IMG/VR virus record: IMGVR_UViG_3300017971_000140 | Strand: one strand, 5' to 3' | Source of the DNA: a virus | DNA length: 39,570 nt | Shown here: positions 17,178 to 36,801 of the stretch, one piece after another | How positions within the stretch are numbered: position 1 is the first letter of the stretch | Layout of the letters: every line of letters begins with the position of its first letter | Made by a program: the position numbers and the translations under genes | Notes under the pieces: generated by a model | Database searches by the model: none | What the model saw: only the letters and a program-made list of their open reading frames with translations | Told to the model about the DNA's origin: nothing

Positions 17178-17214
17178 CTTACTCTTCTATGTAGGAAGGC
17201 CATATATGTGTTAC
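17178..17214 (-). promoter_or_regulatory. Late-promoter-like bipartite motif, copy E (GTAACAC-N14-TACATAGAAGAGTAAG)
   Basis: 16/16 box, ending 22 nt before ATG 17155. The upstream gene's TAA is embedded in GTAACAC. Confidence 0.65.
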
Positions 17215-17777
17215 ATACAACTAGAGCAATCTATAGAACCGGACGATGGAGCCGTGGACGATGCTTTATGCCAGACAAACCCTTTAGCCGAGGTGTCGCC
17301 GCGCTCTATGGCGTTTAGGTTATGATTCCTTCCTGGAGGAAACCACTCTTCTAAAGACAGTAAAGACGTGTGGATTGTTGTACCGTTAAAAGAAATGTCT
17401 ATGGGCTGATTAGTCCCGTTGTGAATATGGGCGTATGCGGCACCTGCAACAGCGTTTTGTTGTATCGGTGTTACAATCTCGAAAGTGTCGGCTGCGGTCG
17501 GTGCTCCACTAAGGGCAACTGAAAGAGTGATGGTGTCGGTGGTGACACTGGCTACCTCTCTGCCTTCTCCGTCGTAAGTACCGCTAGACATTATGATCTG
17601 ATCACCAGCAGAAGCAACATGTCCTGTGGCGTTGATTACCGTGGCGGTAGAGGCTGCTTCCACAGCGTCTTGAACAACCCATGTACCCATCTTGGTGAAG
17701 TTGTCGGCGACCGCGACCGCAGGGCTACTTCTATTAGCGTTCCAAATCGGATCTCTTGCATTAAATTCATTAGCCAT
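17211..17777 (-). CDS. Beta-rich Ala/Thr/Ser-rich protein, function unknown (possible virion surface protein)
   Basis: 188 aa, AGGAGA upstream. Confidence 0.4.
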   Translation of the reverse strand: MANEFNARDPIWNANRSSPAVAVADNFTKMGTWVVQDAVEAASTATVINATGHVASAGDQIIMSSGTYDGEGREVASVTTDTITLSVALSGAPTAADTFEIVTPIQQNAVAGAAYAHIHNGTNQPIDISFNGTTIHTSLLSLEEWFPPGRNHNLNAIERGDTSAKGFVWHKASSTAPSSGSIDCSSCM

Positions 17778-18649: not shown

Positions 18650-19888
18650 TCAAAAAACAAGAAGTCCTTCGATAAATGCTTTAAGATACTCTATTCGCAG
18701 GATTATAGAGTCAGTGGGGAATTCTCCAGTGTAAAGGGTGCGTGATAGGTAGACGTTGTAGTAAACTTCTAGGAATGGGGTATAGAGTGGGGATTTTCTT
18801 AGGTCTCCGTAATCGATCTCGCACAAGTCTTTGTGCATCTGCGCCAAGCGTTTTATAAAGGCGTCGGATTCGTCGAGCTTTGCTGGGTTGAGCTTCCGGA
18901 TAGTGCCGCTTGGCTCTAAGTTGGCCGTATCTGGACACCACTTGGCCGTATTCGGGATATTTCGGCCATTTTTGGCTAGATTTTTGACCGAAAACGACGA
19001 TTCTTTAGCTAAAAATCCAAGTGACTCGGCTTCATTAGCCCAGATGGCTTGTCGTGGATTGTCAATCGCTGATTCGAAGCCTAGGGATTGCGGATAAACA
19101 CCGCCGTCTGCTGTTGGGTTGAGATCCACACCTAGGAGGAGGAATTCTTTTACCTTAAGCCGTTGAGCTAAGCGGAAAGAGAAGGTGGAGACACCGATAT
19201 TCCCTTCGTGTAAGGTTTCGGAACCGGGTTCTAGGTAATCAGCAAAGGGGAAAGTAGATAGGCCAGTTGTTAAAGCTACCGGGCCACGCCAGTTCGCTAA
19301 GAGTTTGGGGTTTACGCCTGAGCCTGCTAGTAGGATTGTGGACTTTGCAAAGGATTCTGGGACATCACCGCGAGAGGCTACGCTTGGGTTGGGGTCGCAG
19401 ACAAGACAAAGATCGGGCGACAGGCCGCGATCGGCAAAAGCTTTAATGGCAGAGCCACCAGCGACGACACGAGCATACCCAGTGTTGAGGCAGAATTCCA
19501 CGAAGTCCCAAGACTCATAGAGCGAGGGGCCTGCGCCGCAGAATAACAACCGTTGTGTTGAGCCAGCAAGTTGATCGAGGAGGGAGCGGAAAGAGCGCCC
19601 GTCTGTGGGGGAGAAAGTCTTGTTGGTGAGGTAGTTGGCAAGGAAGGGGGAGACGTTGGCGCTGAGGTGAGAGACGCAGAGTTGAGAGCGGAGGATTGTT
19701 TCGAACTTCTTTTTGAGGCGATTGGGTGCATCCAGGGTGAAAGGGCGGGGACTGTACGCAAGTCCTTGAGTGAGAAAGTTGAACTGTTCGGGGTTAAGAG
19801 TGAGTGAAGCCAAAGGGGTTTCTACAGAGATTTTGTTGTTCTTTAGTTGGCGTAATTTAATCGGGACTGGTTTAAATTTGATGTGCAT
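18650..19888 (-). CDS. Maf-like / DUF115 (MptE-like fold) putative nonulosonic-acid transferase
   Basis: LLFCGAGPSL...ARVVAGGSAIKAFADRGLSPDLCLVCDPNP...LLLGVDL matches the core pattern of motility-accessory-factor DUF115 proteins. GGGAGG upstream. Confidence 0.55.
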   Translation of the reverse strand: MHIKFKPVPIKLRQLKNNKISVETPLASLTLNPEQFNFLTQGLAYSPRPFTLDAPNRLKKKFETILRSQLCVSHLSANVSPFLANYLTNKTFSPTDGRSFRSLLDQLAGSTQRLLFCGAGPSLYESWDFVEFCLNTGYARVVAGGSAIKAFADRGLSPDLCLVCDPNPSVASRGDVPESFAKSTILLAGSGVNPKLLANWRGPVALTTGLSTFPFADYLEPGSETLHEGNIGVSTFSFRLAQRLKVKEFLLLGVDLNPTADGGVYPQSLGFESAIDNPRQAIWANEAESLGFLAKESSFSVKNLAKNGRNIPNTAKWCPDTANLEPSGTIRKLNPAKLDESDAFIKRLAQMHKDLCEIDYGDLRKSPLYTPFLEVYYNVYLSRTLYTGEFPTDSIILRIEYLKAFIEGLLVF

Positions 19889-19916
19889 GGAAAGAGTCCT
19901 CCCTCTTTGATATGCG

Positions 19917-20297
19917 TTACTTCTTCTTTTTTCTGAGTTTGCGGACTTCTGCTTTGAGGTCTGCGAGTTCTTCTTGCTTGTGGAGCATGTCCCAGTTGTC
20001 GCCGAGTGAAGCTTCCATGCGGTTGACGTAGGTTTGGATTTCCTCGGTGAGGCTCATGAGATGAAGTTGGTCTCGGGGTGAAACGTCACACTTCTGGAAT
20101 ACGATATCGTGGAAGGTGCGCAATTCTTCGAGGGCTGAACAAACATAACGGTTGGGCATATTAAACCTATGAATAAGGGTTGATTCCTCCACTCTTTTTA
20201 TGTACCGGGGGTGATATTTTGTCGCGTCGAGTAGGCAAAAAAGGTCACATATTTGTAGGTAACGGTGTATGTCGATGAGTTTCGGGGAAAGAGTCAA
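19917..20297 (-). CDS. Hypothetical protein with a C-terminal coiled coil and Lys tail; start uncertain
   Basis: 126-codon ORF from TTG 20297 with no SD. The first ATG is at 20159, also without an SD. Confidence 0.35.
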   Translation of the reverse strand: MTLSPKLIDIHRYLQICDLFCLLDATKYHPRYIKRVEESTLIHRFNMPNRYVCSALEELRTFHDIVFQKCDVSPRDQLHLMSLTEEIQTYVNRMEASLGDNWDMLHKQEELADLKAEVRKLRKKKK

Positions 20298-21097
20298 AAC
20301 GTGTATGGAGTGTAACCTGGAAATAAAGGCGCAAAAATAACTTCTAGGTGCATTTCTAGGTGCGCCTGTGGAATTAGCGGAAAGTGCTCTCCCCTAAGGG
20401 GTTGCTCGTTGAAAACCAAAAAATTTAGCTCAGCAACGTATAGATTTACACCACCCCCCTTCAGGGGTTTTTCTAAAATCGCCTTTTTCTAGAGCGCATA
20501 CTGAGGCTTAGCGACTTGGGATTGTATGGTTGATTCGAAGGCAACATAACATGTGTTATCGGACCATGTATGTTGTTTATTTCTTTTGGGTGTATACCCC
20601 TATCAAGGAATGACCCCTAGTAGCGTCGGGGGTGTTCGCATTACAGCGGGGGAGGAATGGTACACGTTGGCTAGAGGCGTTATGCTCGTGGTGGCGCTTA
20701 GAACAAGCCGTGGGAGTTAGGTACTACAATGTAGTACTTCAAGGCTGGGGAAGTAGACGATGAGGTTGGAGTCGTGGGAGTAGTTGGACAGAGTATTGAT
20801 TCCTTCTTGGTGTATCATGTACACAAAAGCGTTGTTTTCTATGCACGACGGTGGGATGAGTCCACAAAATGATGATTATTGTGCCTTTTACCCTGTAATT
20901 AGTGACAACTTCATGGTCGTTGACTTGATCGCCGACCAAGTGGGGGCACTTCTCTCACTACGTGCGAGTGGGCACTGTCCTTGGGAAGCTAGGAAAGAGC
21001 CTCTAATTGACCCTGACGTAAGCTAACGCCCCAGGTTGTTAACCTGAGGCGATGTGGGGCGATTACTCCTTGTGGTATAGTTTCTTGTGCGCGTCCT
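20298..21097. other. 800-bp ORF-poor gap with local hairpins and short direct repeats
   Basis: Contains only two mutually overlapping 66-80 aa ORFs, neither with an SD. The rest of the genome is tightly packed. Confidence 0.7.
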
Positions 21098-21826
21098 CTA
21101 ACTTCTTACTTCCTCCATTGCGTAGGTTAGTTCGCGCCAGGTGTAACCGATTGGGTCTGTCATCCGGCGAAGGGCACGTCGCAGTTGCACGTAGTCCTCT
21201 GGTGTGTCAAGTGTACACCTGAGGTTAGAGTAGTCACCGCCGCAGGGTGTCACGTATGAGACGTTGTGTGAATTCTTAACTAAGTCCCGAGGATAGCCTT
21301 GATAGGTGCGGATCATCGGAGTGACGTGCTCCCTTGCTGCGCAAGGTTCATCGATGATGTGGTCATCGGCTTCTACCAACGCGCTAAATGGAAAGAGCTC
21401 GAAATCAAAGCCTTTGGGGAATGTTCGCGCCGAGGTGTTGGACAAGTACCTTGAGTTTGTGCGGTGAAACGTAAGGATTGCATCGTCTATCAGCTGAGGG
21501 TCAGTGAAAGGACAATCCGCTGTAATGCGAATGATGCAAGATTCTTCGTGAGCACCGAAACGCTTGGCTGCTTGAACGTAGCGTGTTAGTACGTCTTCTT
21601 CGGGGCCTCGATGGGAGCAGGTGGCCCAACGAAGGCAGAGGTCAGCGATGGGGTCATCGAGTGGTGAGTCAGTGGTGGCGACAACGACACGGTCAACGTG
21701 CTTGCACTGGGCTACTCGTTGGAGTAGGTGCTCCAACACTGTAGTGCCATCAGTTGCTAGTGGATAGAGCACCTTGCCTGGGAGTCGGGTCGACCCCATG
21801 CGGGCTTGGATTATTAGTAGGTTCAT
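21098..21826 (-). CDS. SpsF-type cytidylyltransferase (CTP_transf_3 family; nonulosonate/acylneuraminate-type sugar activation)
   Basis: N-terminal LLIIQARMGSTRLPGKVL, then VVVATTD, RGPEEDVLTRY, IIRITADCPFTDP, REHVTP and CTLDTPEDY. AGGAGG upstream, ATGA overlap with the preceding gene. Confidence 0.8.
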   Translation of the reverse strand: MNLLIIQARMGSTRLPGKVLYPLATDGTTVLEHLLQRVAQCKHVDRVVVATTDSPLDDPIADLCLRWATCSHRGPEEDVLTRYVQAAKRFGAHEESCIIRITADCPFTDPQLIDDAILTFHRTNSRYLSNTSARTFPKGFDFELFPFSALVEADDHIIDEPCAAREHVTPMIRTYQGYPRDLVKNSHNVSYVTPCGGDYSNLRCTLDTPEDYVQLRRALRRMTDPIGYTWRELTYAMEEVRS

Positions 21827-22137
21827 GCTTCACCTCCTGCTTCGCAGCTTAGTTGTTGAGTCTTAGGGTTTAGGTAGAAAGAGCGGTCCTTCTCTGCTAG
21901 GTTATACACCTTGAGGTAAAGCTCCTTCGTGGCTTGAGCGCAGTAGAAGCGGCGGCCAAGTGATTCAGCTGCATGCGGAGTGAGCACGTTGAGTTCGCTG
22001 CGTTCCGCGGAGAGAGCTGGCAGTGTTTCCGGGTCGGCTATGGAAAGCCAGGTTATTGCTTGCGCATAGCAGTGACCAAAATCTTCGGCCATTGCTATGA
22101 TGCGGCGGTGCTTGGTGTCAACTATTGCTTTGGTCAT
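21823..22137 (-). CDS. Hypothetical protein
   Basis: 104 aa, AAGGAG upstream, TAATG overlap. Confidence 0.5.
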   Translation of the reverse strand: MTKAIVDTKHRRIIAMAEDFGHCYAQAITWLSIADPETLPALSAERSELNVLTPHAAESLGRRFYCAQATKELYLKVYNLAEKDRSFYLNPKTQQLSCEAGGEA

Positions 22138-22586
22138 TAGTCTTCTCCTTGGTTGTATTCACTTGGTTTTACTACCCCACCGCACTGGGCTTCTGTGATT
22201 CGATTGAGGCCGGCTTCCAGAGCGTCGACGTTACGTTGGTATTCGTCGGCCCTTCGAGTAGCTTTGACTTTGGCTATCTCCTCTGGTGTGAGGGGAAAGA
22301 GCGTCTCCCCGTTGGCGGTGGCTGGGTCTACTGCTGTGAAGTCGAGAGGTAAAGCCTTTAAACCTTTTGTTAGCTGACATATAGCGTCGAGTGCATCGTC
22401 GTCCTGGAGTTCATCTTGCAACACCATATCGTGTTGTGCTCCTTGGGTTTTGGGTTCTAGGTTGTCAGGTGTTACGTACTTGAAGTTAAGACTTGCGTTG
22501 AGTAGCCCAGCTTTGATCTTTTCGTCAGTGACTTTTCTTGATACGTGCTTCCAAATCGGATGGATGAATAGGGTGTAGTCTTTCAT
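22137..22586 (-). CDS. Hypothetical protein
   Basis: 149 aa from ATG 22586 (AAGGAGG upstream). The track's longer start would lie upstream of the promoter. Confidence 0.5.
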   Translation of the reverse strand: MKDYTLFIHPIWKHVSRKVTDEKIKAGLLNASLNFKYVTPDNLEPKTQGAQHDMVLQDELQDDDALDAICQLTKGLKALPLDFTAVDPATANGETLFPLTPEEIAKVKATRRADEYQRNVDALEAGLNRITEAQCGGVVKPSEYNQGED

Positions 22587-22620
22587 GGTGTGGCCTCCTT
22601 TGTTTGCCTTTGTACCTTTC

Positions 22621-22649
22621 ATTGTATCAGTTGTCGGAATTATTGTCAA
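22621..22649 (-). promoter_or_regulatory. Sigma70-type promoter TTGACA-17-TACAAT with a CCGACAA spacer box
   Basis: Minus strand reads gtccTTGACAataattCCGACAActgaTACAATg. Confidence 0.65.
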
Positions 22650-23028
22650 GGACTTTAATATTAATTTTTACATAGCGTTTTCTGATTCCTCTGATAGAGA
22701 TCCGCTTAGTGGGTAGACCGAGCGACCGCAGGGCTTTACAGAAAGTTGCAAGTGTGTAGGAATTATCCTTTGTTTCTGCTTGGTATTGCCTGAAAAGTGC
22801 GCTTGCCTCTGTGTAATGGTCGCCGTGGGTTATGTTGTGCCCCTCGATCCAAGCGCCGATGGGGTTTCTTTTGGTTGCTTTGATAGTGACCTTCTCTACC
22901 TTGGTAAGTAAGGCGCACAGTTCGTCGACCTGGGATTGGGTGAACCTGTCCAGTAAAATATCAAGTTCTTCTGTGAGGTCTGGCAGGAATTCTATGTGTT
23001 TTTCTAGTCTCTTGGTGTTAGTGCTCAT
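22627..23028 (-). CDS. Hypothetical early protein, possibly DNA-binding
   Basis: 133 aa, AAGGAGG upstream. The C-terminal part loosely resembles winged-helix tails of P4/D5-type primases. Confidence 0.4.
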   Translation of the reverse strand: MSTNTKRLEKHIEFLPDLTEELDILLDRFTQSQVDELCALLTKVEKVTIKATKRNPIGAWIEGHNITHGDHYTEASALFRQYQAETKDNSYTLATFCKALRSLGLPTKRISIRGIRKRYVKINIKVLDNNSDN

Positions 23029-23057
23029 TGATTGCTCCTCCTTAGTGGGTTACCTTC

Positions 23058-23086
23058 GTTATAGCAGTTATCGGAGTTTCTGTCAA
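23058..23086 (-). promoter_or_regulatory. Sigma70-type promoter TTGACA-17-TATAAC with a CCGATAA spacer box
   Basis: Minus strand reads cccTTGACAgaaactCCGATAActgcTATAACg, about 30 nt before ATG 23028. Confidence 0.65.
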
Positions 23087-23287
23087 GGGCTTTAGTAAAA
23101 AACTTTGCTTGGATTATCGGATTTATCCTTAATGCTTGAGGCTAGGTGAGTTAGCTTCGGAAATTTCTGCGCGGATTCCTAGTGGTTAGTCAGGACAAAA
23201 CTAAGCTTTTTCGACTAGGTACCCCCCTTTCCTGCCCGGTGTTTAACGAAAACCCAGGTGTTTTTGTTTGCACTCAAGTTTTTACTT

Positions 23288-23302
23288 TATACTATGAGTA
23301 TT
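23288..23302. repeat. 15-bp box TATACTATGAGTATT, copy 1 (contains ATACT-N3-AGTAT dyad)
   Basis: Exact repeat of 23350-23364. Each copy is preceded by TTTAC. Confidence 0.6.
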
Positions 23303-23349
23303 TTACATCACGTAGACAATAACCACCTGTACACCAGCTCTTTACCGAA

Positions 23350-23364
23350 TATACTATGAGTATT
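23350..23364. repeat. 15-bp box TATACTATGAGTATT, copy 2
   Basis: Exact repeat, 62 bp from copy 1. Confidence 0.6.
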
Positions 23365-23413
23365 GAGTAAGATTTGAGCCTCAAACTGAGATTTTACTGG
23401 GCAGAGAGGGCAG

Positions 23414-23583
23414 ACCGGGCAGCACCTCGTAACCTAGTCACCTTTAGTAGTTTATCCTGCCCAGTGCGTCATTTCTACTGGGCAGCAACCGGACAGCAAC
23501 CGGGCAGCACCTCGTAACCTAGTCACCTTTAGTAGTTTATCCTGCCCAGTGCGTCATTTCTACTGGGTAGCAACCGGACAGAG
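23414..23583. repeat. 85-bp tandem direct repeat, 2 copies (about 82/85 identical), each containing the inverted pair CTGCCCAG-N14-CTGGGCAG
   Basis: 23414-23498 versus 23499-23583. There is an extra CTGGGCAG at 23397-23404. Confidence 0.85.
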
Positions 23584-23605
23584 CAAGAAGTTTTTGCTAA
23601 TGTGT

Positions 23606-23634
23606 TTGACAAAAAAGACGATATTTATTATACT
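23606..23634 (+). promoter_or_regulatory. Sigma70-type early promoter TTGACA-17-TATACT
   Basis: Consensus -35, 17-nt spacer and a near-consensus -10, 27 nt before ATG 23661 with AAGGAGG in between. Confidence 0.75.
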
Positions 23635-23660
23635 GAAGGAAACCAACAAGGAGGGACACC

Positions 23661-23834
23661 ATGGAACTTACTACAGAACAGATTGAGCAGATCTATAAAG
23701 AGGTGGACGAGTGGCGAGCGTACTTAATAGTTACTTACGGCAACAAGGCGTTTAGGAGGGGACAGTATCCCTACTCTATGGATGATACCATTGTTGATTG
23801 GGCCACACGAAAAGTACTAAAGGATCAATCATGA
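23661..23834 (+). CDS. Hypothetical early protein (57 aa, below the ORF-track cutoff)
   Basis: AAGGAGG 7 nt upstream. ATGA overlap with the next gene. Confidence 0.6.
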   Translation: MELTTEQIEQIYKEVDEWRAYLIVTYGNKAFRRGQYPYSMDDTIVDWATRKVLKDQS

Positions 23835-24151
23835 CACAAGAGCACGTATGGGCCTTATATAAGGGGGTGAAACCCTTCAAAACCGAGGGGTGGTGTGCAT
23901 ACACTCAGATTGACGGTGTACAAGCCTTGTTATATACAGGTGATACGGCCGAGGAATGCGCCAGTGCTTACGATGAATATATCACACTTCTGAAGCCTAA
24001 GAAATGGCAGTCAAATCTTAATAAAGTTACTGGCAAACACTGCCCTCTAAAACTTTGGAGCGGGTTGGCGAGACTAGCCTCCCCGAAAGTTATGAGGGTA
24101 GCGAGTATATTAGAGGAGCACTTTTTTAACCAACAAGGAGGTAACCAATGA
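23831..24151 (+). CDS. Early protein with an AP2-like DNA-binding domain (candidate regulator)
   Basis: KGVKPFKTEGWCAYTQIDGVQALLYTGDTAEECASAYDEYI fits the AP2 pattern GV..(K)W.A.I...G....G.F.T.EEAA.AYD. Confidence 0.45.
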   Translation: MTQEHVWALYKGVKPFKTEGWCAYTQIDGVQALLYTGDTAEECASAYDEYITLLKPKKWQSNLNKVTGKHCPLKLWSGLARLASPKVMRVASILEEHFFNQQGGNQ

Positions 24152-24687
24152 GACTTTTTACCCTATTAACCATAGCCCTTACCCTATTAATAGGTGAAGT
24201 TGAGGCTAACAAGAAGTTTTTCCGCATCTATGATCTGATGGAAGTTAAGTATAGTGAGCATACATCCCTTAAACCTTTAGATGGGATTGGAAATATAGCG
24301 GCTGTATACAATAGTTGGCACGATGATATTAAGATTCTGAAGCAGGGGTTGTTCCAGTCTGACCGCGACTATCTACAAACAATACTGCACGAGTTAGCAC
24401 ACTGGGCAGGTGGAAGGGAATATCGAGCGCACCGCCACATTGACGATACTTATATTGAGGAAGTGATCGCAGAAAACGTGGCTCTGAAGCTATCCACAAA
24501 GCTATTTGGTGGACGTTATGCGGACTCTGTCGAAAATGTACTTCATTATTTGACGAGTCATCCTACTTACCGACCTCTGAACGATCCTGAGTTGGCGCTT
24601 ATAGACGCTTGCGTAAGAAACACTTATATGTTTTTGATAAAAGATTTAAAAAGGGTTGACGTAAATAACGAGCTTGGGTTAAGATAA
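24148..24687 (+). CDS. Zincin-like metallopeptidase domain protein (ArdC / PolyVal-type HExxH) with an N-terminal signal peptide or TM
   Basis: MRLFTLLTIALTLLIGEVEA, then ILHELAHWAGGREYR...YIEEVIAENVALKL. AAGGAGG upstream. Confidence 0.6.
   Translation: MRLFTLLTIALTLLIGEVEANKKFFRIYDLMEVKYSEHTSLKPLDGIGNIAAVYNSWHDDIKILKQGLFQSDRDYLQTILHELAHWAGGREYRAHRHIDDTYIEEVIAENVALKLSTKLFGGRYADSVENVLHYLTSHPTYRPLNDPELALIDACVRNTYMFLIKDLKRVDVNNELGLR
24656..24685 (+). promoter_or_regulatory. Possible sigma70-type promoter TTGACG-18-TAAGAT
   Basis: Lies in the last codons of the preceding gene, 32 nt before ATG 24718. Confidence 0.35.
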
Positions 24688-24717
24688 AGGTATAAGAAAA
24701 AGCCAGAGGAGGCGACC

Positions 24718-25167
24718 ATGGACTACGATTTATTGGACAGAGTGGCTAAGAGGATGAGCGTTAGAATAGAATTCGCTGATACAGGGATAGAGCACTGCCA
24801 CGGTATTTGTGAGTACTGGGATAGCAAGGTTATCATAGACAGCTCTTTACCAGAAGAGCATAGGGCGCATGTGTTGTTGCATGAATTGGCACACGTCACA
24901 GGATCCAAGGAGAGATTGGACAGGGAGACATTGACCTCTTATGGTTCAAACACTCTTTACGCTCTCGTTGAGGAGATGATAGCAGAATCAACCGCTGTGG
25001 CCATACTAAAGAGTTTCGGACTCAACCCACGTATGCGGCTAATGGATCGCTTAGGCGCTGAGTGTGATGCTCAGGGGATAGAGTGGGAGCACGACATAGA
25101 ACCAGAGGTAGAGAGAATAATTGATTACTTAAGTAAACATTTCAAGGAGGTATACGAATGCCAGTAA
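24718..25167 (+). CDS. Zincin-like metallopeptidase domain protein (ArdC / PolyVal-type), cytoplasmic paralogue
   Basis: LLHELAHVTGSKERLDR...YALVEEMIAESTAVAIL. GAGGAGG upstream. Confidence 0.6.
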   Translation: MDYDLLDRVAKRMSVRIEFADTGIEHCHGICEYWDSKVIIDSSLPEEHRAHVLLHELAHVTGSKERLDRETLTSYGSNTLYALVEEMIAESTAVAILKSFGLNPRMRLMDRLGAECDAQGIEWEHDIEPEVERIIDYLSKHFKEVYECQ

Positions 25168-25328
25168 AACAATATTGGGTTCATTTAGACGGGTTCAAGG
25201 TTTGTTACCCTACAATGGAGCAGGCTGAGGAGTGTGCCGCATCAATAGCTCAGTCTAGATCAGAGGGTCAGGGGAAAGAGCGGTGGTGCGAGGAGTACGA
25301 CAACATAGAAATTGAGGTGGAAGAATGA
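25158..25328 (+). CDS. Hypothetical protein (56 aa)
   Basis: AAGGAGG 7 nt upstream of ATG 25158. ATGA overlap downstream. Confidence 0.5.
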   Translation: MPVKQYWVHLDGFKVCYPTMEQAEECAASIAQSRSEGQGKERWCEEYDNIEIEVEE

Positions 25329-25501
25329 CGCAGATAGAATTTATCCATGATTGGGGTAGCCATAACTTGACACTCCCCGAACCGAAGGGAGATGATCCTT
25401 TGTTTACTGTAGTAGAAGCTGATTATGTAGAGGAGTTTTGTGAAGAAACTGGAGAGGTATACCTCAGGCCCCAAGTCACGTTAGAGAGGATTAAAGAATG
25501 A
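25325..25501 (+). CDS. Hypothetical protein (58 aa)
   Basis: Part of a chain of ATGA-coupled ORFs. Confidence 0.45.
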   Translation: MTQIEFIHDWGSHNLTLPEPKGDDPLFTVVEADYVEEFCEETGEVYLRPQVTLERIKE

Positions 25502-25683
25502 AAATACTAAAGTTCGTAGCAGACCCGGCCGATATTATAGAGGCAAGGCAAGTAACGCGGATCACTGAAGAGGATCCACCAGAGGTGACACTGTTAGAGC
25601 CGATGGATGAAACAAACTGGGATAGGTATTACTTCCAATCAAGTCAAGAGATTATTAACTTTTATCGTGGAGAAACACAATGA
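25498..25683 (+). CDS. Hypothetical protein
   Basis: 61 aa, ATGA-coupled on both sides. Confidence 0.5.
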   Translation: MKILKFVADPADIIEARQVTRITEEDPPEVTLLEPMDETNWDRYYFQSSQEIINFYRGETQ

Positions 25684-26117
25684 GCTACATATTCACAAAG
25701 AATCTAGACGACTTACAGGACGCACTAGAGAGATGTCAAGAGACGGCAAGGGCTTTTCCAGAGAGTGGGACTAGTCATGAAGACATAGCCCGCTTCGATA
25801 CCAAGGAAGAGGCTGAGGCACTTTGTGTCATGGTAGATAAGGTATATGCCGGAGAAGAAAACATCGTTATAGCTTATAGGTGCATCGCTGACTTGTATTT
25901 CGTAGAGATCAGGTACACTCTTTCCCCGGATGAACTTGAGGAGGCTTTTAGTGCCCTTGAAGATTATTACAAAGACGTTCGGCCTGAAGATATACCACCA
26001 ATGGACCCGAATAACCCCGCTGATAGAGAATTGATGGACATTGCTCAGGACATGATGAAAGAACTAAGACGCTTAGAGGCTGAAGACGAAGAGGAGGAAG
26101 AAAAAGATGTTGACTAG
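25680..26117 (+). CDS. Strongly acidic early protein
   Basis: 145 aa, D/E-rich, ending EAEDEEEEEKDVD. GGAG upstream. Confidence 0.55.
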   Translation: MSYIFTKNLDDLQDALERCQETARAFPESGTSHEDIARFDTKEEAEALCVMVDKVYAGEENIVIAYRCIADLYFVEIRYTLSPDELEEAFSALEDYYKDVRPEDIPPMDPNNPADRELMDIAQDMMKELRRLEAEDEEEEEKDVD

Positions 26118-26358
26118 CATTATGGCTAGCCTGGGTGCTGCAATCGGTGGCCAGGTGATTAAATACATGAAGGAGCATAGGAAAGAGCAGCAACTTGAGA
26201 TTATGCAGGGAGAAATCCTAGAGGGCTGGGTCTACAAGATTCAGATCGCAGTAAGGGACGAGCACCGGAAAGGTGGGGTACCCTTGGAGACACACAAAAA
26301 GGTGATGGATAAAATCGCGGAGGTGGTTCGTGAAGAATTTGACACGACGAAAATCTAA
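26107..26358 (+). CDS. Hypothetical protein
   Basis: 83 aa, GAGGAGGAAG upstream. Confidence 0.5.
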   Translation: MLTSIMASLGAAIGGQVIKYMKEHRKEQQLEIMQGEILEGWVYKIQIAVRDEHRKGGVPLETHKKVMDKIAEVVREEFDTTKI

Positions 26359-26473
26359 TCTTGAACAAGCTTGTGACAACATGGAAACTATTCTTAACTT
26401 TGCTGATGCTGTAAAGGAGGCTAATAAGAAGCCCTACAACCCACGAAAAGAGGCGATGGAGGAATATCACAAG

Positions 26474-26620
26474 ATGTCAGGTAGGATACCACTTGTCTGC
26501 CTAGGTATGACGATTTTAATACTACTTCTTTCTAGTTGTGCCGTGAGGCCAGCTTACATTGAGGTTGAGTGGGTTGAGGACGAAGTGTTATACGAGGTGC
26601 CGCCTTATGGAGATAATTAA
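26474..26620 (+). CDS. Small lipoprotein (48-aa precursor); start uncertain (in-frame alternatives at 26381 and 26330)
   Basis: MSGRIPLVCLGMTILILLLSSC has a basic n-region, a hydrophobic core and an L-S-S-C lipobox. GGAGG 11 nt upstream. Confidence 0.45.
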   Translation: MSGRIPLVCLGMTILILLLSSCAVRPAYIEVEWVEDEVLYEVPPYGDN

Positions 26621-26825
26621 TGGAGACTTAGTACTACGTATGCGCAAGGAAGATGTGTATTACCTTGTTACTAAGCTGAGATCAGAGACGGAGTTTAATA
26701 ATCTACCTGTAAAAAATATGAGTCCGAGGGAATTGCTACAGAGGAGTTTAGGTAGAGAAATAATCGAAGACGAAAACGATTATTTTTTTATTGGTAAAGT
26801 CCTTGACGATAATTCCGATACCTAG
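26607..26825 (+). CDS. Hypothetical protein (72 aa)
   Basis: ATG 26607, overlapping the end of the preceding ORF. Confidence 0.45.
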   Translation: MEIINGDLVLRMRKEDVYYLVTKLRSETEFNNLPVKNMSPRELLQRSLGREIIEDENDYFFIGKVLDDNSDT

Positions 26826-26831
26826 TATAAT
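26803..26831 (+). promoter_or_regulatory. Sigma70-type promoter TTGACG-17-TATAAT with a CCGATAC spacer box
   Basis: Reads gtccTTGACGataattCCGATACctagTATAATc. Confidence 0.7.
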
Positions 26832-26902
26832 CAAGTCAGGAAGGAAGACAAGGCTCGACTTGTTCGGGCCAAGGAAAGAGGCCAACTAGAGGAGGTCGTA
26901 CG

Positions 26903-27103
26903 ATGACAACGGTTTTATGTTTCTTAGGTGTAATCGTTATGTACTTTATCGGGAAGTGGGTAGACGACAATGAAGATGTTGCGATGCCCTTCATCAGGAG
27001 TATGATTACTGTACCTTTCGTGGTAACCTTGTGGTTGCTCTCCATGGGAACATCCGCAGCAGCCTTATACGGGTTTTATCTTATAATAGTGAGGATCTTC
27101 TAA
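26903..27103 (+). CDS. Two-TM membrane protein (holin-like or exclusion-type)
   Basis: 66 aa with two hydrophobic helices. GAGGAGG upstream. Confidence 0.5.
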   Translation: MTTVLCFLGVIVMYFIGKWVDDNEDVAMPFIRSMITVPFVVTLWLLSMGTSAAALYGFYLIIVRIF

Positions 27104-27210
27104 TGAGTATCAAGAGGCTTCAAGAACTAGCCGTTGCCACGTGGTTCATAGGCTCTGTCCTGGCACTAGCAGGATATGCGATGTATCAATCAATACAGGG
27201 GGTTTTGTGA
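27103..27210 (+). CDS. 35-aa single-TM peptide
   Basis: TAATG overlap. Contains ATWFIGSVLALAGYAMY. Confidence 0.35.
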   Translation: MSIKRLQELAVATWFIGSVLALAGYAMYQSIQGVL

Positions 27211-27278
27211 TGAATAAACCAGACGCAATAAGTTTAAGGTTGGCTGATATGCAGAATTTCAGAGATTAAAGGAGAAAT

Positions 27279-27479
27279 ATGATGTGTAGAGATTATTATC
27301 CAGAATATTATGATGAAGCTAACGAGATGTATCTACGTTGGTATGAGGATGATAGATACCACGACATTATGAAAAAGGTAGACGAAGCAAAATTTTTACT
27401 AAAGGACTTGACAGGTTTGGTCGATAATGTTAGTATAAGAGAAATAACAGAGACCTTAGAGGAGGCCGAGAATGTCTAA
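27279..27479 (+). CDS. Hypothetical acidic Tyr-rich protein
   Basis: 66 aa, AAGGAG upstream. Confidence 0.5.
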   Translation: MMCRDYYPEYYDEANEMYLRWYEDDRYHDIMKKVDEAKFLLKDLTGLVDNVSIREITETLEEAENV

Positions 27480-27675
27480 CTACCGCAAGCTACTACTAGA
27501 GGCACAGAGAAGAGCTGACAACAGAAAAGAGGTTCGAGAGTCAAAACCTCTCTACTGCTACAAGAAAGAAGAATTGAGTCCCGCTACTGACATGGTGGAA
27601 TGTATCCTATGGGGGTTGGCGATGGTAGCCGCCCCCGTACTTTTCGCAGTCGCAACGCTAACATTCGGGGCGTAG
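27472..27675 (+). CDS. Tail-anchored membrane protein
   Basis: 67 aa with a C-terminal TM ILWGLAMVAAPVLFAVATLTFGA. AGGAGG upstream. Confidence 0.5.
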   Translation: MSNYRKLLLEAQRRADNRKEVRESKPLYCYKKEELSPATDMVECILWGLAMVAAPVLFAVATLTFGA

Positions 27676-27792
27676 TCATGAGGATCACACCAGTTATACC
27701 CGTCTATACCCACTTATACAAGACTAAGAAACAGAAGACGAAAACAAGTGGTAAGGACATAAAGAAGAAAGACGGATTTAAGGAGGTACTTA

Positions 27793-29103
27793 GTGGCATA
27801 CGACGACTTGACAGACGAGCTTAAAGAGAAACTACTCAGTGAGTTAGACGTTTCCTCTCAAGGCGGCGACGAAAAGCTCTTGATTATCGAAGAGCAAAAC
27901 GCCTTTGTAGAGAAGTTCGTAAGACAGAAAAAAATTAATGTAAGGTTCGATGGCTCGATTGATTGGAAGGAGAACCCTAGTATTAGCCGTGACGTGTTCA
28001 TCACCAAGATCCAACAAGAGTACAGGGTCTTTGCGGCTAAGTTCAAGATAGCCAGTCCTAACCGTCTTAGTCGGGCAGATTTGCAGAACCAATTGAAGGA
28101 GTTGCTTTATGATAACAAGGCCGAAAAACTACACCGACTTGAGAACATGGTACGTTATCGGCCAGAGGCTTGTAAAAAGGAGATGGACAGGTTCATTGAG
28201 GCGCTCTTTCCACAAGCGACTAAGGATAAACGTAGGTTTGCTAAGAAGGTATTCGAGTGTTTCTTGTGGCAAGTCAAGAGGAAGATTGCGGGGTTGCCAG
28301 TTGAACACCACATAATGCCCGTTCTTTACAGTAAAACACACGGTACTGGAAAGAGTGTGTCCGTGGAGAACCTCGTTGCACCTTTAAAAGAATTTGTTTT
28401 GCACCTACAACTAGACGTATTCAGAGACACTTTCTTTCGCAAGGCTTTCAGTGAACACTTTGTGGTTATCTTCGATGAGTTACAAGGTGCAGGACGTACC
28501 GATATTGAGAGTATGAAGAACGTCATTACAGCTAATACTCTAAGTGCTAGGGGCATGAGGACACAAGACATTGACACGATCCCCCAAAACTGTACTTTCA
28601 TTGGTACGACTAACCGACCACTAGCGGATCTTATTTTTGATAACACGGGAATGAGACGTTTCGTTGAGCTGGAGCTTGAAGCAAAAGCAGACTTAGAAGT
28701 GATCACAGGTGAGAAGTGGTTAGCTGGTAAGAGGATTAAGGTAAAGAATCCGATCGACTTCTTAAAGGTTTGGCAAAGTGTCGAAGAGTTGCAGTTGAAT
28801 CCGATCTTAGAGATTCAAGAAGAGTTGAGCGAGCACCAAGAATCGTTGCGTACTGCAACCACACTTGAACAGTGGGTCGATGAATTTGAGGTAGAGCCGG
28901 GGGATATACCTAATGAGCTGAATGTGATGTTCGCCCATTACAGGGAATGGATGGAGTTACAGCGCAAACAACCTGGTATGAGTGCCAAGTTTGCTAAGGA
29001 TCTCAAGGGGTTGGGATTCGGTGATGCGGTGAGAAAGACCATCGGCGGTAAACGTGCAAGATGGATAAATTTAGACCGTGATATTGCAGGATTAAAAACT
29101 TAA
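27793..29103 (+). CDS. VirE-family SF3 (D5/P4-like) replicative helicase
   Basis: Walker A HGTGKS, Walker B VVIFDEL, and IGTTNRPLADLIFDNTGMRRF (the VirE TGxRRF motif). GTG start with AGGAGG upstream. Confidence 0.75.
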   Translation: MAYDDLTDELKEKLLSELDVSSQGGDEKLLIIEEQNAFVEKFVRQKKINVRFDGSIDWKENPSISRDVFITKIQQEYRVFAAKFKIASPNRLSRADLQNQLKELLYDNKAEKLHRLENMVRYRPEACKKEMDRFIEALFPQATKDKRRFAKKVFECFLWQVKRKIAGLPVEHHIMPVLYSKTHGTGKSVSVENLVAPLKEFVLHLQLDVFRDTFFRKAFSEHFVVIFDELQGAGRTDIESMKNVITANTLSARGMRTQDIDTIPQNCTFIGTTNRPLADLIFDNTGMRRFVELELEAKADLEVITGEKWLAGKRIKVKNPIDFLKVWQSVEELQLNPILEIQEELSEHQESLRTATTLEQWVDEFEVEPGDIPNELNVMFAHYREWMELQRKQPGMSAKFAKDLKGLGFGDAVRKTIGGKRARWINLDRDIAGLKT

Positions 29104-29113
29104 GGGGTAAGAC

Positions 29114-29962
29114 ATGGAGGAGTATCTTGAAGCGTTGTTCGACGCTGAAGAATTCGTTTGCTCAGCGGACAATCCGTTTGAGACCAAAGTAACTAAACTA
29201 GAAGGAGTTAGTAGGGATGATGCCTACATTACACTTAATCCTCTACGGGGGGAGTCATCTAGAGCCGATAAGAACACCGATAAGTTTCGGAATTTTCTTG
29301 TTGAGTTCGATGATCTTATTCTTGATAAGCAGTTATTACACGTCGAAGAAATAGGGATGCCTTTCACTACCTGCGTCTTTTCCGGAAATAAATCGTTTCA
29401 TTTTGTGATTTCGTTGCAGGATCCATTGCAGGATAGGAAAGAGTATGATCGCCTGGTACGTTGGCTCTATGCTGCTGTGCCGGATGCTGACCCTTCTTGT
29501 AAGAATCCGTCACGGTTTACTAGACTCGGTGGTGGAACACACAAGAATGGCACCAAGCAGGACATTGAGCAGCTTAGGGGTAGGGTCAGCCAAGAAGAAC
29601 TCGTTGCGTGGCTGAGCAGCCGCTGTGAGCAGCCTGCGTGCGTTTCTCGGAGCGCTAAGCAGTTGGCGGATGATGAGTTCTTTGCTATTCAGAAGACAGG
29701 ATATCGAGCTAAGCTACACAAGGCCACAATTGGTTTTTGTAAGACCGGAGGACGGAAAGGATTTCGTCATAAGAATGTTTTCATCGCTGCGTGTAACATG
29801 AGGGATTGTTATTACACGATAGACGAAGCTAAGTTTTTGTTACTCAATAAGCTGGCGAAGATATATGCCGAGCAGGGTAGGAGTGATGAAGACTTGGAGT
29901 TGAAGGAAAGAGCGATTGAAGATGCGTATCAACAGGTCCCCAGGGTCCAGACGAGGAGTTGA
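29114..29962 (+). CDS. Archaeo-eukaryotic-type primase (AEP / prim-pol-like)
   Basis: FLVEFDD (acidic motif I), SGNKSFHFVISL (motif II) and NPSRFTRLGGG (motif III). Confidence 0.6.
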   Translation: MEEYLEALFDAEEFVCSADNPFETKVTKLEGVSRDDAYITLNPLRGESSRADKNTDKFRNFLVEFDDLILDKQLLHVEEIGMPFTTCVFSGNKSFHFVISLQDPLQDRKEYDRLVRWLYAAVPDADPSCKNPSRFTRLGGGTHKNGTKQDIEQLRGRVSQEELVAWLSSRCEQPACVSRSAKQLADDEFFAIQKTGYRAKLHKATIGFCKTGGRKGFRHKNVFIAACNMRDCYYTIDEAKFLLLNKLAKIYAEQGRSDEDLELKERAIEDAYQQVPRVQTRS

Positions 29963-29965
29963 AGA

Positions 29966-30301
29966 ATGAAGATTAGGGTTATTATCACAGGGAAATCAGC
30001 ACCAGAGGCTGAAGCGGTCATCGAACACGCACTTTCCGAGTTAGGGGACGTGGATGTTAAGTTCATGACTGATAGCGGTATGCGAGTAATTATTGCATAC
30101 GAAGAAAAAAAAGCTGCTAAAGTGTTGACAAAAAAGGCCGATAATTGTAACATTGGGGAAAGAGCCAAGGAGGCCAGCTATGACAGTAAAGACACTCCCC
30201 ATAACAAGAGAAGAAGCAAGGGTATTAGCAAGAATAAGGACAGTGCCAAGCCTACAGGAAGAAAGGGCAATGGCGGGAGCGGTAAGGCAGTTGGTGCCTA
30301 G
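29966..30301 (+). CDS. Hypothetical protein; low-complexity basic tail overlaps the next gene
   Basis: 111 aa, AGGAG upstream. Confidence 0.45.
   Translation: MKIRVIITGKSAPEAEAVIEHALSELGDVDVKFMTDSGMRVIIAYEEKKAAKVLTKKADNCNIGERAKEASYDSKDTPHNKRRSKGISKNKDSAKPTGRKGNGGSGKAVGA
30125..30153 (+). promoter_or_regulatory. Sigma70-type promoter TTGACA-17-TAACAT with a CCGATAA spacer box, internal to ORF 29966-30301
   Basis: Reads gtgTTGACAaaaaaggCCGATAAttgTAACATt. Confidence 0.55.
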
Positions 30302-30362
30302 GTTGTCGTCACACGAAGTTGAGGAAGTAGTTGAATATTATCTAACCAAACAGGAGGTTTAA
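30180..30362 (+). CDS. Hypothetical protein (60 aa)
   Basis: ATG 30180 with AAGGAGG 6 nt upstream and a promoter 27 nt upstream. Confidence 0.55.
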   Translation: MTVKTLPITREEARVLARIRTVPSLQEERAMAGAVRQLVPRLSSHEVEEVVEYYLTKQEV

Positions 30363-30363
30363 G

Positions 30364-30597
30364 ATGGAAAACCAAGAAGAACAAGAGGTGCAGCCAGTGT
30401 TAATGGATGTGGTGAGCGACGCAAGAATGCAGCTAGACAAGATAGCCCAGGTGTTAATTAAGATCGCGGAGGGTATGACAGCTGAGGAGAAGATGGAAGT
30501 ACAGGAAGAATTTGAGAGTATTGCTTATTCGGCTATGCTGATCTCGATGGATGCGAAGCTCGAAATGGATTTAAATCTTGAAGAAGAGGAGGAGTAA
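30364..30597 (+). CDS. Small acidic protein
   Basis: 77 aa, ending NLEEEEE. GGAGG upstream. Confidence 0.5.
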   Translation: MENQEEQEVQPVLMDVVSDARMQLDKIAQVLIKIAEGMTAEEKMEVQEEFESIAYSAMLISMDAKLEMDLNLEEEEE

Positions 30598-31679
30598 TGC
30601 ACGAACTCTTTAAGAAGTACGGCTTGAAACATCTTTCGATTAGTCAGGTCAAGACTATAAAGAGATCACCATTTGCATGGATTTGTGAGAAAGTCCTTGA
30701 TCGTCGTAGCCCTCCTAGTGAGGCTACGACTTTCGGAAGCTTTGTACACGAGAACTTCGAATGGTGGTTAGCCGATAAGATCGAGAAACCAGAGGTGATA
30801 TACATCTCAGAAGAGGCAAAAGAGTTCTGGGTTGTTGCTTGGAATGCTAAGTTGTTGAAATTCTGGGGGGAGTATCGAAGGCTGTATCCTTTTTGGCCGT
30901 GTGAAGACGGTATCGAAAAGAAGTTCTCTCTTTCCTTGGATGACCAGTTGCCGCCCTTCATCGGGATGATTGACGTTGTGAGTCAGAACGAGACTCATGT
31001 GTTGATTCAAGACCATAAGACGGTAGGGAATAAATCCTATGCACCTAAGACAAGTGCGGATTTGGCTGCGGATCCTCAATTGAACCTGTATGCCTGGGCT
31101 ATGAGAGGTGAACAAGAGTTACTCCCTGTGGTGCAACACAACCAACTCTTTAAAAAGATTAAACGTAAGCCTGTGAACATACTCACAGCTGAGTTGACTT
31201 GGGAGAGTGTGGAGAGTGTGGTTGAGCAGGTGCGACAAGATGCCTTGCAAGCTATCACGATCCTTGAGGAGTATGATAGGATGGGCATAGAGAAATTCGC
31301 TCATTTTTATTCCGAAGGGTACGAGCAAACTCGTTGGGACTTTGGGGGTTGCCCTCACTGGAACTTTTTTAAGGAATGCCAAAAGAAATATCTTGACAAT
31401 AAAAGGAAAGTGTCCTACAATAAGGGCAACAAAGGAGAAGACACGATGCCGGAAGATTTGCACGCCTTGGTTGGCAAAGCAAGAGAGCACTTTACAGCTG
31501 AAGGGTTGATCAAGTTTGACCTGGCTGATGCTGTAGTCGACGCAGTAATGCAAAACCTAGTGAGTAAGAAAGTCAAGGCGATCTTTGTTAGAGATGGCGA
31601 AGGTGGTGACCTTATTTACAACCAGCTACTTAATCGGATAGCTGAGAACGGGATTCATATTTTTAAGAAGGTGATATGA
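30597..31679 (+). CDS. PD-(D/E)xK nuclease of the Cas4/RecB exonuclease type
   Basis: IGMIDVV...LIQDHKT and QLNLYAWA motifs. Cys at WICEK plus GGCPHWNFFKEC. Confidence 0.65.
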   Translation: MHELFKKYGLKHLSISQVKTIKRSPFAWICEKVLDRRSPPSEATTFGSFVHENFEWWLADKIEKPEVIYISEEAKEFWVVAWNAKLLKFWGEYRRLYPFWPCEDGIEKKFSLSLDDQLPPFIGMIDVVSQNETHVLIQDHKTVGNKSYAPKTSADLAADPQLNLYAWAMRGEQELLPVVQHNQLFKKIKRKPVNILTAELTWESVESVVEQVRQDALQAITILEEYDRMGIEKFAHFYSEGYEQTRWDFGGCPHWNFFKECQKKYLDNKRKVSYNKGNKGEDTMPEDLHALVGKAREHFTAEGLIKFDLADAVVDAVMQNLVSKKVKAIFVRDGEGGDLIYNQLLNRIAENGIHIFKKVI

Positions 31680-31903
31680 TGGAGTATACAAGATTATACG
31701 TTACAGGTAACCAACACATGGCTAGGTTAAAACAAGAGGAGATCGGACTTCGTTATTCTCAACACGTTGACTTTCTAGGTATTGATCGGTTACAATCCGC
31801 ATTAGATCTAAGAAAAACTTACGACAGTGTAATTATAGAGGGTGTTGGTATTGAACAACTTGACGAACTATCTCTAGAAATTATCAGGAGTTTGCTAAAG
31901 TAG
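31676..31903 (+). CDS. Hypothetical protein
   Basis: 75 aa, ATGA overlap. Confidence 0.5.
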   Translation: MMEYTRLYVTGNQHMARLKQEEIGLRYSQHVDFLGIDRLQSALDLRKTYDSVIIEGVGIEQLDELSLEIIRSLLK

Positions 31904-31932
31904 TTGACAAGAATAACCGATAACATTAACAT
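31904..31932 (+). promoter_or_regulatory. Sigma70-type promoter TTGACA-17-TAACAT with a CCGATAA spacer box
   Basis: Reads tagTTGACAagaataaCCGATAAcatTAACATa, 24 nt before ATG 31957. Confidence 0.6.
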
Positions 31933-31956
31933 AAGGCTAACCAAGGGAGGAAAGCC

Positions 31957-32463
31957 ATGACAGAACAAAAGAGAAAATTCGTAAATTATTCACCAGTAGG
32001 AACCTTGAAGTACCCACGGTTGAACAAGCCGGATGAATTCAGGGGAAAGAGCTCGTTTAAGACCATCCTAGTGTTGGACCCTAAAGACGAAGCCGTGATT
32101 GAGTTCATGGAGAAACTAGACACACACGTCTTTGACCGCTTGAACGAAGGTGATTACCGCCCAGTCAAGGAAGTTGATGGGATGTTAGAGTTAACGGTGA
32201 AGCGTAACTCTGATTTCGGTCCACCTCTGTTCTTTGAGCCAACAGGTCCTAAGAGTAGTGAGAAGTTAGACCGCGCACCTGGTTTGATCTGGGGCGGCAC
32301 TGAGGCAAGTGTTTCTTTCACATGCTATCACTATGAAGGCGGCGTAAGTTTTGCCCTCGCTGGTGTTACCATTCACAAGCTGGTAGAGCCTGAGAACAAG
32401 CATGGCGACAAAAAGCCGGCGGCTGCTGGTAAGAAGAGTGCGAAGGATATTTTCGAAAACTAA
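31957..32463 (+). CDS. T7 gp2.5-like single-stranded DNA-binding protein
   Basis: GTLKYPRLNKPDEFRGKSSFKTILVLDPKD parallels T7 gp2.5 GTAEPYAYIAKPDYG...YKVDLTIPNKD. The later WGGTEASVSF...VTIHKLVE parallels IGGGSKLKVKY...VMLVEL. Confidence 0.6.
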   Translation: MTEQKRKFVNYSPVGTLKYPRLNKPDEFRGKSSFKTILVLDPKDEAVIEFMEKLDTHVFDRLNEGDYRPVKEVDGMLELTVKRNSDFGPPLFFEPTGPKSSEKLDRAPGLIWGGTEASVSFTCYHYEGGVSFALAGVTIHKLVEPENKHGDKKPAAAGKKSAKDIFEN

Positions 32464-32469
32464 TCAACG

Positions 32470-32499
32470 GAACCCCTCATAGTCTGGGGGGTTCTTTTT
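32470..32499 (+). terminator. Rho-independent terminator
   Basis: GAACCCC-loop-GGGGTTC followed by TTTTT, 7 nt after the SSB stop. Confidence 0.75.
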
Positions 32500-32506
32500 A
32501 GGAGGA

Positions 32507-32749
32507 ATGATGTTTAAATCAATTGATGCTTTACGAGATCTGACACAGGATTTTTGCCATCTAGTTCGACAAAGAGCAGGCGGTGTATCTAATGAGGAGT
32601 GGGATATATACCTAAAAATCAGTGCAGAATTATGTTTGTTAGAGCGGAAGATAATGAACCTGGATTTTTCTCAAGATCAAGAACAAATAAAAACGATGAT
32701 CGTGGCGTTTAATCGGTTCCAGGAAACAACAGCAGGAGGCACCAAGTGA
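32507..32749 (+). CDS. Hypothetical protein
   Basis: 80 aa, AGGAGGA upstream. Confidence 0.5.
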   Translation: MMFKSIDALRDLTQDFCHLVRQRAGGVSNEEWDIYLKISAELCLLERKIMNLDFSQDQEQIKTMIVAFNRFQETTAGGTK

Positions 32750-36554: not shown

Positions 36555-36555
36555 G

Positions 36556-36759: not shown

Positions 36760-36766
36760 CAATAGT

Positions 36767-36790
36767 CCCCCCTCTTCGGAGGGGGTTTCT
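36767..36790 (+). terminator. Strong GC hairpin with a TTCG tetraloop plus a short U-tract
   Basis: CCCCCTC-TTCG-GAGGGGG followed by TTTCT. Confidence 0.7.
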
Positions 36791-36801
36791 CGGGGGATGG
36801 T

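Follow-up and report, generated by a model that had tools for sequence, protein, structure and literature searches.

Intrinsic terminators, made of short GC-rich hairpins and U-tracts, lie between early and late units at the operon borders of phages such as T7 and lambda, and small antisense or regulatory RNAs are also encoded by phages (OOP of lambda, sar of P22 and c4 of P1). Here, these and other described systems were compared with a gene-free gap (positions 20160-21097) and the conserved core inside it (20398-20655) in the IMG/VR virus record IMGVR_UViG_3300017971_000140, a stretch of 39,570 nucleotides that is called the window throughout. The gap resembles the operon borders of T7 and lambda in having short GC-rich hairpins and U-tracts between what appear to be early and late units. 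However, the clearest U-tract lies antisense to every neighbouring gene, and the hairpins predicted in the sense orientation have poor U-tracts. With OOP, sar and c4 it shares a weak promoter, hairpins and a terminator in a regulatory intergenic region, opposed to the neighbouring genes, but it has no sequence or Rfam similarity to them, no convincing promoter and a fold that is not conserved between the window and its syntenic relative. Furthermore, it is like the terminal repeats or concatemer junctions of T7-like phages and cos/pac sites in being a long gene-free non-coding stretch of a circularly collapsed assembly, with local repeats and hairpins, conservation between relatives and a core of terminal-repeat size, and unlike them in that some 2 kb separate it from the early promoters, which are not adjacent, and that terS is several genes off. 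Finally, the large RNAs GOLLD, ROOL and HEARO and the group I/II introns are similar only in length and in the lack of open reading frames (ORFs), as no covariance-model match to them was found at E<=10 and no excess folding energy was observed.

The gap is read here, tentatively and with somewhat less than even confidence, as a non-coding module that bounds and controls transcription where the leftward early operon meets the first late one, and that possibly also yields a small plus-strand RNA. It would be an element of an ordinary kind for such a junction, in a new instance whose value is local rather than general, marking the early/late border in a phage lineage without a cultured relative. 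The original prediction had described an 800-bp gene-free gap in an otherwise tightly packed genome, and such a gap is indeed there but longer (938 bp), because the gene on its low side starts at an internal Met (20159). In particular, this gene had been called as a 126-aa ORF with a TTG start (19917-20297), and all of its homologues (18/18) began at the internal Met, with a codon score per codon of 0.32 for 19917-20159 versus −0.03 for 20160-20297. Judged by these homologue starts and scores, the 126-aa ORF is an over-call with 46 noncoding upstream codons, and the annotation is corrected to an 80-aa conserved small protein (19917-20159, minus strand). The gap extends from this gene to that of a cytidylyltransferase (CTP_transf_3, 21098-21826) on the high side. 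Intergenic spacings elsewhere ranged from −29 to 165 nt on a crude gene map, except for the divergent early control region (23029-23660), which is the other of the two large gene-free stretches.

Conservation within the gap was established with a second phage genome, IMG/VR UViG_3300035698_012105 (38,163 bp; hereafter G001), which was found by a search with the large terminase subunit TerL in IMG/VR and was the one usable syntenic genome given by the TerL searches. G001 is collinear with the window over its full length, with protein identities of 40-77%, TerL being the best-conserved protein (77%), together with 67% for the terminase small subunit and 55-71% for the replication proteins. The Maf-like gene that lies beyond the 80-aa gene in the window (MptE/Maf-like protein, 18650-19888) is present in G001, which has neither the 80-aa gene nor the cytidylyltransferase and in which 580-770 bp ahead of the Maf-like gene are poor in ORFs. 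There, positions 36326-36578 aligned with about 255 bp of the gap (20398-20655, read on the minus strand), with a local alignment score of 48 compared to 12.5 ± 1.4 (maximum 20) in 200 dinucleotide shuffles and to 11 against the reverse complement. The identity was 63% by blastn with 1/−1 scoring (E 1.2e−9), the indels were of 1-2 nt and not multiples of three, and this core was the only wholly non-coding match in the genome-to-genome comparison of the two phages. Moreover, with weakly conserved flanks on both sides included, the element runs from about 20270 to about 20745. In contrast, the early control regions of the two phages were not conserved (score of 16 vs. 12.5 ± 1.5 in shuffles). 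Since the early control region failed to align and the late-promoter motif was changed while the core was kept, the core is, on the evidence of this comparison, subject to stronger purifying selection than the promoters of the two phages, and it is the one non-coding element so kept between the window and G001. Hence the lack of any conservation, which the original prediction had named as an outcome that would speak against a function, was contradicted, and in this lineage the core becomes the natural place to begin when the transcription programme, a regulatory RNA or the genome ends are to be mapped.

No further copies of the core were found in other related loci. Two degenerate DNA patterns of the core retrieved only G001 from IMG/VR, while in 185,579 bacterial and archaeal GTDB genomes degenerate core patterns gave six chance matches, none of which was confirmed by nhmmer, and blastn of the gap against 50,697 GenBank phages gave no match. 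Metagenomes scanned with the Maf-like protein yielded G001 once more, and an IMG/VR search via the flanking genes gave only a cytidylyltransferase of 31% identity. Seven distant phages with the 80-aa gene family, in which this gene closely follows that of the primase and leaves no gap, were discarded as uninformative. Closer relatives were seen in the protein database (P0003, from a 40,255-bp contig, P0004 and P0005). The 80-aa proteins P0002-P0005 have identities of 60-64%, and the contigs encoding them in Logan/ENA measure 40.3, 23.7 and 12.6 kb. Besides, the leftward early operon was found to be fully exchanged between the two phages: four genes in the window, including the cytidylyltransferase (21098-23028), correspond to about ten unrelated small ORFs in G001 (L016 13279-16172), and conservation resumes abruptly at the core.

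Three short hairpins were recognized in the core. Hairpin H1 (20613-20632) is formed by CCCC, a 10-nt loop and GGGG with an A-T closing pair, its stem being identical in G001 and its loop half changed, and its tail is more U-rich on the plus strand, clearly so in G001. Hairpin H2 (20588-20600) has a 4-bp stem in the window and a 5-bp stem in G001, with loops that differ in length and sequence. Hairpin H3 (20453-20468) is followed by a run of five T (the whole spanning 20453-20475) and is a predicted intrinsic terminator, namely a GC-rich hairpin with a U-tract directly after it, on the plus strand, antisense to all the neighbouring genes. It was flagged by the terminator scan in both phages (in G001 at L016 16530-16510, minus strand), and the 11-mer comprising the A-run and the 5′ arm of the stem is identical in G001. 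GC-clamp hairpins of a design like that of H3, with T runs on the coding strand, were also found directly after other genes of the phage at 14586 (minus), 32473 (plus) and 36767 (plus). As the CCCC/GGGG-type stems of H1, H2 and H3 were kept and their loops varied in length and sequence between the phages, selection appears to act on the hairpins. Furthermore, a 21-nt imperfect palindrome resembling an operator (20549-20569), which includes a C(C/T)GATAAC box (minus strand, 20555-20562), falls within one of the best-conserved blocks of the core, with one compensatory change and with wobble pairs that hold on the plus-strand RNA only. The motif CCATACA appeared on the minus strand at 20523-20529, inside the core, and again 221 nt downstream at 20302-20308, these being the only two copies in the whole window; in G001, the matching element likewise holds two copies, located at 36449 and 36672 with a distance of 223 nt. 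On the plus strand, the hexamers TTGTAT (at the first CCATACA copy) and CATAAC/CATAAT (at the left edge of the palindrome) are spaced by 17 nt in the window and 16 nt in G001.

The order of elements was the same in both phages: early-left operon, hairpin, spacer, core, late promoter (a weak candidate in the window) and first late gene. On the high side, hairpin t1 (21027-21051, minus strand; 11-bp stem and 3-nt loop) is the probable terminator of the leftward early operon; it starts 46 nt past the cytidylyltransferase stop, is followed by a weak U-tract and has one G.U pair, valid on the minus-strand RNA only. Its analogue in G001 is a 10-bp hairpin with a T-rich tail (L016 16056-16078) after the last early-left gene. 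On the low side, a degenerate late-promoter motif and then GGAGGA were found on the minus strand (20184-20227), 25 nt upstream of the ATG of the 80-aa gene. With a weight matrix built from the six late promoters of the window, this motif (20227-20184) was the second-best match in the gap, scoring 0.1 compared to 44-58 for real sites, and is a candidate for a weak late promoter driving the operon formed by the 80-aa and Maf-like genes. In G001, the Maf-like ATG is preceded at 40-70 nt by a copy of that phage's late motif, a site of which the window has a decayed version. A late motif, a copy of its own in G001 and a degenerate one in the window, is located just downstream of the core, which places the core at the early/late border. 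With regard to the late promoters themselves, of the phage ECF-sigma class, those of the window lie on the minus strand at 17216, 14687, 12174, 9282, 3504 and 1945, and those of G001 at 3386, 5851, 8732, 14719 and 36687, with an upstream TAAC half of the motif common to both phages and downstream halves that differ; the matrix from the six window sites found nothing in G001. The differing halves match the fact that the sigma-kinase fusion proteins of the two phages are only 41% identical.

According to the proposed mechanism, the gap would act on transcription and not via a protein or a large folded RNA. Early transcripts from the leftward operon, whose last gene is that of the cytidylyltransferase, would be stopped at t1 (21051-21027) and perhaps also at H1. 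A lineage-specific spacer of about 370 nt, holding an orphan plus-strand ORF, would come next, followed by the core (20655-20398) with its GC-clamp hairpins, the operator-like palindrome and the CCATACA site that is repeated ~222 bp downstream. Then, the weak late-type promoter would restart transcription into the late genes, the first late operon consisting of the 80-aa and Maf-like genes. Moreover, antisense reading of the core is probable as well, with a short plus-strand RNA as its product or at least a block to antisense transcription, because the plus-strand U-tract of H3 is conserved, another hairpin has a weaker, U-rich tail on that strand and the wobble pairs of the palindrome hold on the plus strand only. 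Termination at the hairpins, the direction of transcription and the binding of any regulator to the palindrome are all predicted here from sequence features.

Several observations weigh against this transcription boundary. The plus-strand transcript has no demonstrated start, since the candidate promoter agrees with the consensus at 7-8 of 12 positions, compared to 11-12 of 12 for real early promoters, and the late arm revealed no promoter on the plus strand that would call for an antisense terminator. In addition, a consensus scan detected, on either strand, no sigma-70-type promoter of the early class in 19800-21400, that is, one with near-consensus −35/−10 hexamers at 17 nt and a CCGATAA box in the spacer, and the best promoter weight-matrix score in the gap was 5.1, compared to roughly 15-27 for the top sites of the window. 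The fold of the candidate plus-strand RNA gave a z score of −3.6 in G001 and +0.2 in the window, and with a sample of two genomes the power to detect covariation is almost nil. Both t1 and H1 lack canonical U-tracts. Furthermore, an identity of 63% over 255 bp is somewhat surprising for a purely regulatory region, because promoters evolve fast in both phages, and such conservation would suit a site that is read by conserved machinery, e.g. the terminase or the replisome.

An uncultured tailed phage of ~39 kb is represented by the window, whose assembly is complete and circular, and in which the first 123 bases exactly repeat the last 123, so that the genome is in fact about 39,447 bp long. A minus-strand gene called as 412 aa continues upstream across the window ends; because of the overlap and of this gene, the apparent 620-bp gap at the ends (1-266 plus 37972-39570) is not a gap but coding sequence, kept in G001 with third-position substitutions. 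Minus-strand genes, including TerL, portal and virion genes, occupy 267-23028 and extend over the ends to 37972, and plus-strand genes occupy about 23660-37857, including a T7-like replication set (helicase, primase, exonuclease and family A polymerase). The best match of TerL among GenBank phages had 23% identity, and therefore the lineage has no cultured relative. The guanine-cytosine (GC) skew was positive on the plus strand nearly genome-wide, in both arms, not following the direction of transcription.

No coding signal was found in the gap. The two mutually overlapping ORFs on which the original prediction had remarked (20739-20939 minus and 20784-21026 plus) are present, they are the longest of the gap (66 and 80 aa), and neither has a usable ribosome-binding site (RBS). 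Searches of the longest stop-to-stop frames of the gap against Pfam and PHROGs gave nothing below E 0.06, and tblastn with the ORFs from nine related loci gave no match in it. By tblastx, no conservation at the amino-acid level was seen between the gap and G001, as the matches carried stops in both phages and changed frame. The plus-strand ORF (20784-21026), the only one on that strand in the minus-strand arm, is probably no gene: its TTG start is right behind a stop codon, with GGGAG just 2 nt upstream. Its codon score of 0.20 per codon, mildly positive and the sole such score in the gap, is within the top 2-3% of spurious ORFs (2/89 reached 0.16). A phmmer search with it against 1.84 billion representative proteins returned only itself and three repetitive proteins, which were rejected as homologues since their E-values were inflated by summed repeats, and it has neither a Pfam or PHROG family nor a counterpart in G001. 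Thus, a conserved protein-coding gene, which the original prediction had named as evidence against its own proposals, was not found by homology in Pfam, PHROGs or the search of 1.84 billion proteins.

Similarly, RNA searches with the Rfam 15 library, which includes GOLLD, ROOL, HEARO, group I/II introns, riboswitches, small RNAs (sRNAs) and CRISPR repeats, gave zero matches at gathering score in the whole window and zero at E<=10 in 20100-21300, while the best matches in G001 had 14-19 bits, far below the gathering scores of 34-50; ARAGORN detected no tRNA or tmRNA gene in the window. Fold z scores of the whole gap against shuffles were −1.6 (minus strand) and −0.3 (plus strand), those of the core ranged from −0.7 to −1.8 on both strands of both phages, and 120-nt windows were unremarkable save for 20380-20499 on the plus strand (−3.3). 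The consensus fold reached −31 and −36 kcal/mol compared to single-sequence means of about −72 and −85, i.e. ~0.42 of the energy was recovered, with few two-sided base changes between the two available sequences, a number at which covariation has almost no power.

Turning to other explanations of the gap, a large structured non-coding RNA and a gene that has decayed, both put forward in the original prediction, would agree with a long stretch without ORFs, and the neighbouring sugar-modification genes belong to a pathway that usually has more members. Nevertheless, both ideas are extremely improbable after these tests: for the former, Rfam is empty even at E<=10, GOLLD, ROOL, HEARO and introns included, the fold z scores of −0.3 to −1.8 are near those of shuffles and the consensus retains only ~0.42 of the energy; for the latter, no frame has a family match, no homologue was found and the conservation with G001 is at the DNA level, with frame-breaking indels and none of the amino-acid sequence. 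A real orphan protein, encoded by the ORF at 20784-21026 in convergent orientation with the cytidylyltransferase gene, is quite unlikely too. This ORF was called by a public gene caller (P0020), its codon score is within the range of the small genes of the phage and its end coincides exactly with the t1 hairpin, but it would begin at a TTG without a usable RBS, where nearly all genes of this phage have one, no promoter precedes it, and on the plus strand t1 contains a C.A mismatch and lacks a U-tract. Except for noise, it lacks a homologue among the 1.84 billion proteins, it has no family and is absent in G001, and it would account for 243 of the 938 bp and for none of the conserved core. An alternative centred on the core, which overlaps with the preferred reading, is that it encodes one or two small regulatory RNAs on the plus strand. 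These would be antisense to the flanking genes, one ending at the H3 terminator (about 20475) and the other running from about 20555 to about 20642 via H2 and H1, and would act on read-through transcripts or host mRNAs. The conserved plus-strand hairpin with its U-tract, the conserved TTGTAT and CATAAY hexamers at 16-17 nt on the same strand and the wobble pairs that favour it point in this direction, as do the version in G001, which folds into three neat hairpins (z −3.6), and the lowest z score of the gap at 20380-20499 (plus strand, −3.3). However, the promoter is weak by the phage's own standards, the fold is not conserved (z +0.2 in the window for the second RNA and +2.3 in G001 for the first), no sRNA family of Rfam matched and just two sequences are at hand, so this possibility is given a low probability. 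The more specific version, in which undescribed lineage-specific plus-strand RNAs of the core would gate the operon of the Maf-like sugar transferase and the late genes or target host messages, is held to be similarly unlikely.

The conservation of the core could also be explained if it were a cis-acting DNA site for genome maturation, either a collapsed terminal repeat or concatemer junction or a cos/pac site of the terminase. This idea of a terminus or packaging site, raised in the original prediction, is the main rival, and it is considered rather unlikely as well. A circular assembly, such as that revealed by the 123-bp overlap and the gene across the ends, would leave a gene-free stretch, and with TerL and the terminase small subunit conserved at 77% and 67%, their cognate DNA would be expected to be kept while promoters drift. 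The core has sharp edges and a size of about 255 bp, which is typical for the terminal repeats of podoviruses, no other sizeable non-coding DNA lies closer to terS on its upstream side, its CCATACA pair ~222 bp apart could represent paired protein-binding sites, and on a linear map opened here, 2-3 kb would separate the early control region from one of the ends. On the other hand, 3.2 kb and four genes lie between the core and terS, when pac sites are usually in or next to that gene. The conserved stems and variable loops suggest a function of the hairpins over sequence-specific binding of the duplex, the GC skew shows no inflection at the gap and the metagenome contig of G001 runs straight through it, though a collapsed repeat would look alike. 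A replication origin for the T7-like replisome is very unlikely, even though the replication proteins are well conserved (55-71%), hairpins shield the core on both sides, and the core contains an A/T-rich patch and GGTC words, such words being used by the T7 primase. The core is far from the replication module, no iterons or DnaA-type boxes were found, the cumulative GC skew rises steadily through the gap without an inflection, and T7-type origins need strong promoters, none of which is present here.

The remaining features of the gap were also catalogued. All the hairpins, repeats and the box listed in the original prediction were present where it had placed them, and its interpretation of the gap was supported in part. 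Most of the hairpins and short repeats were no more than expected by chance. A perfect 7-bp palindrome is located at 20721-20737, and in G001 three tandem 9-bp units stand equally far upstream of the core; the word TAGTAC is common to both and not enriched genome-wide. A 7-bp stem (20327-20333 with 20361-20367) encloses two 10-mers with a 12-bp period (20342 and 20354), and a CCCC-TAA-GGGG hairpin lies at 20391-20401, both features being specific to the window and absent from G001. In addition, a direct repeat was found at 20706 and 20770, a nested stem at 20936-20984 and a nested hairpin at 21027-21061.

As for genes near the gap, the 80-aa protein has an invariant central motif and is one of a family with at least 19 clusters, found in phage contigs of around 40 kb. 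In the more distant relatives L002 and L003 its gene immediately follows that of the primase, on the same strand, and its position in the window thus reflects a rearrangement. A 188-aa protein of the window (17211-17777) matched four consecutive segments upstream of terS in G001 (L017 75-1265), and G001 therefore has tandem repeats of the domain of that protein. Regarding the box within the palindrome, CCGATAA is enriched in the window (11 copies vs. 3.5 expected), and the copy at 20556-20562 (minus strand) has no hexamers at the right places. Two promoters tried at this site were rejected: a sigma-28-type promoter, whose spacing fits in G001 but is 3 nt off in the window, and a sense-strand promoter with the palindrome as spacer, which has no −35 hexamer. 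The box is not visible in the near-consensus sigma-70-type promoters of G001. The consensus of sigma-28 (FliA) is TAAA, 15-16 nt and then a GCCGATAA-like octamer, and three CCGATAA early promoters of the window (30125-30153 and 31904-31932, plus strand, and 23087-23059, minus strand) also fit it. The Maf-like gene and the cytidylyltransferase of the phage are typical of flagellin glycosylation, perhaps linking the phage to the flagellar regulon of its host.

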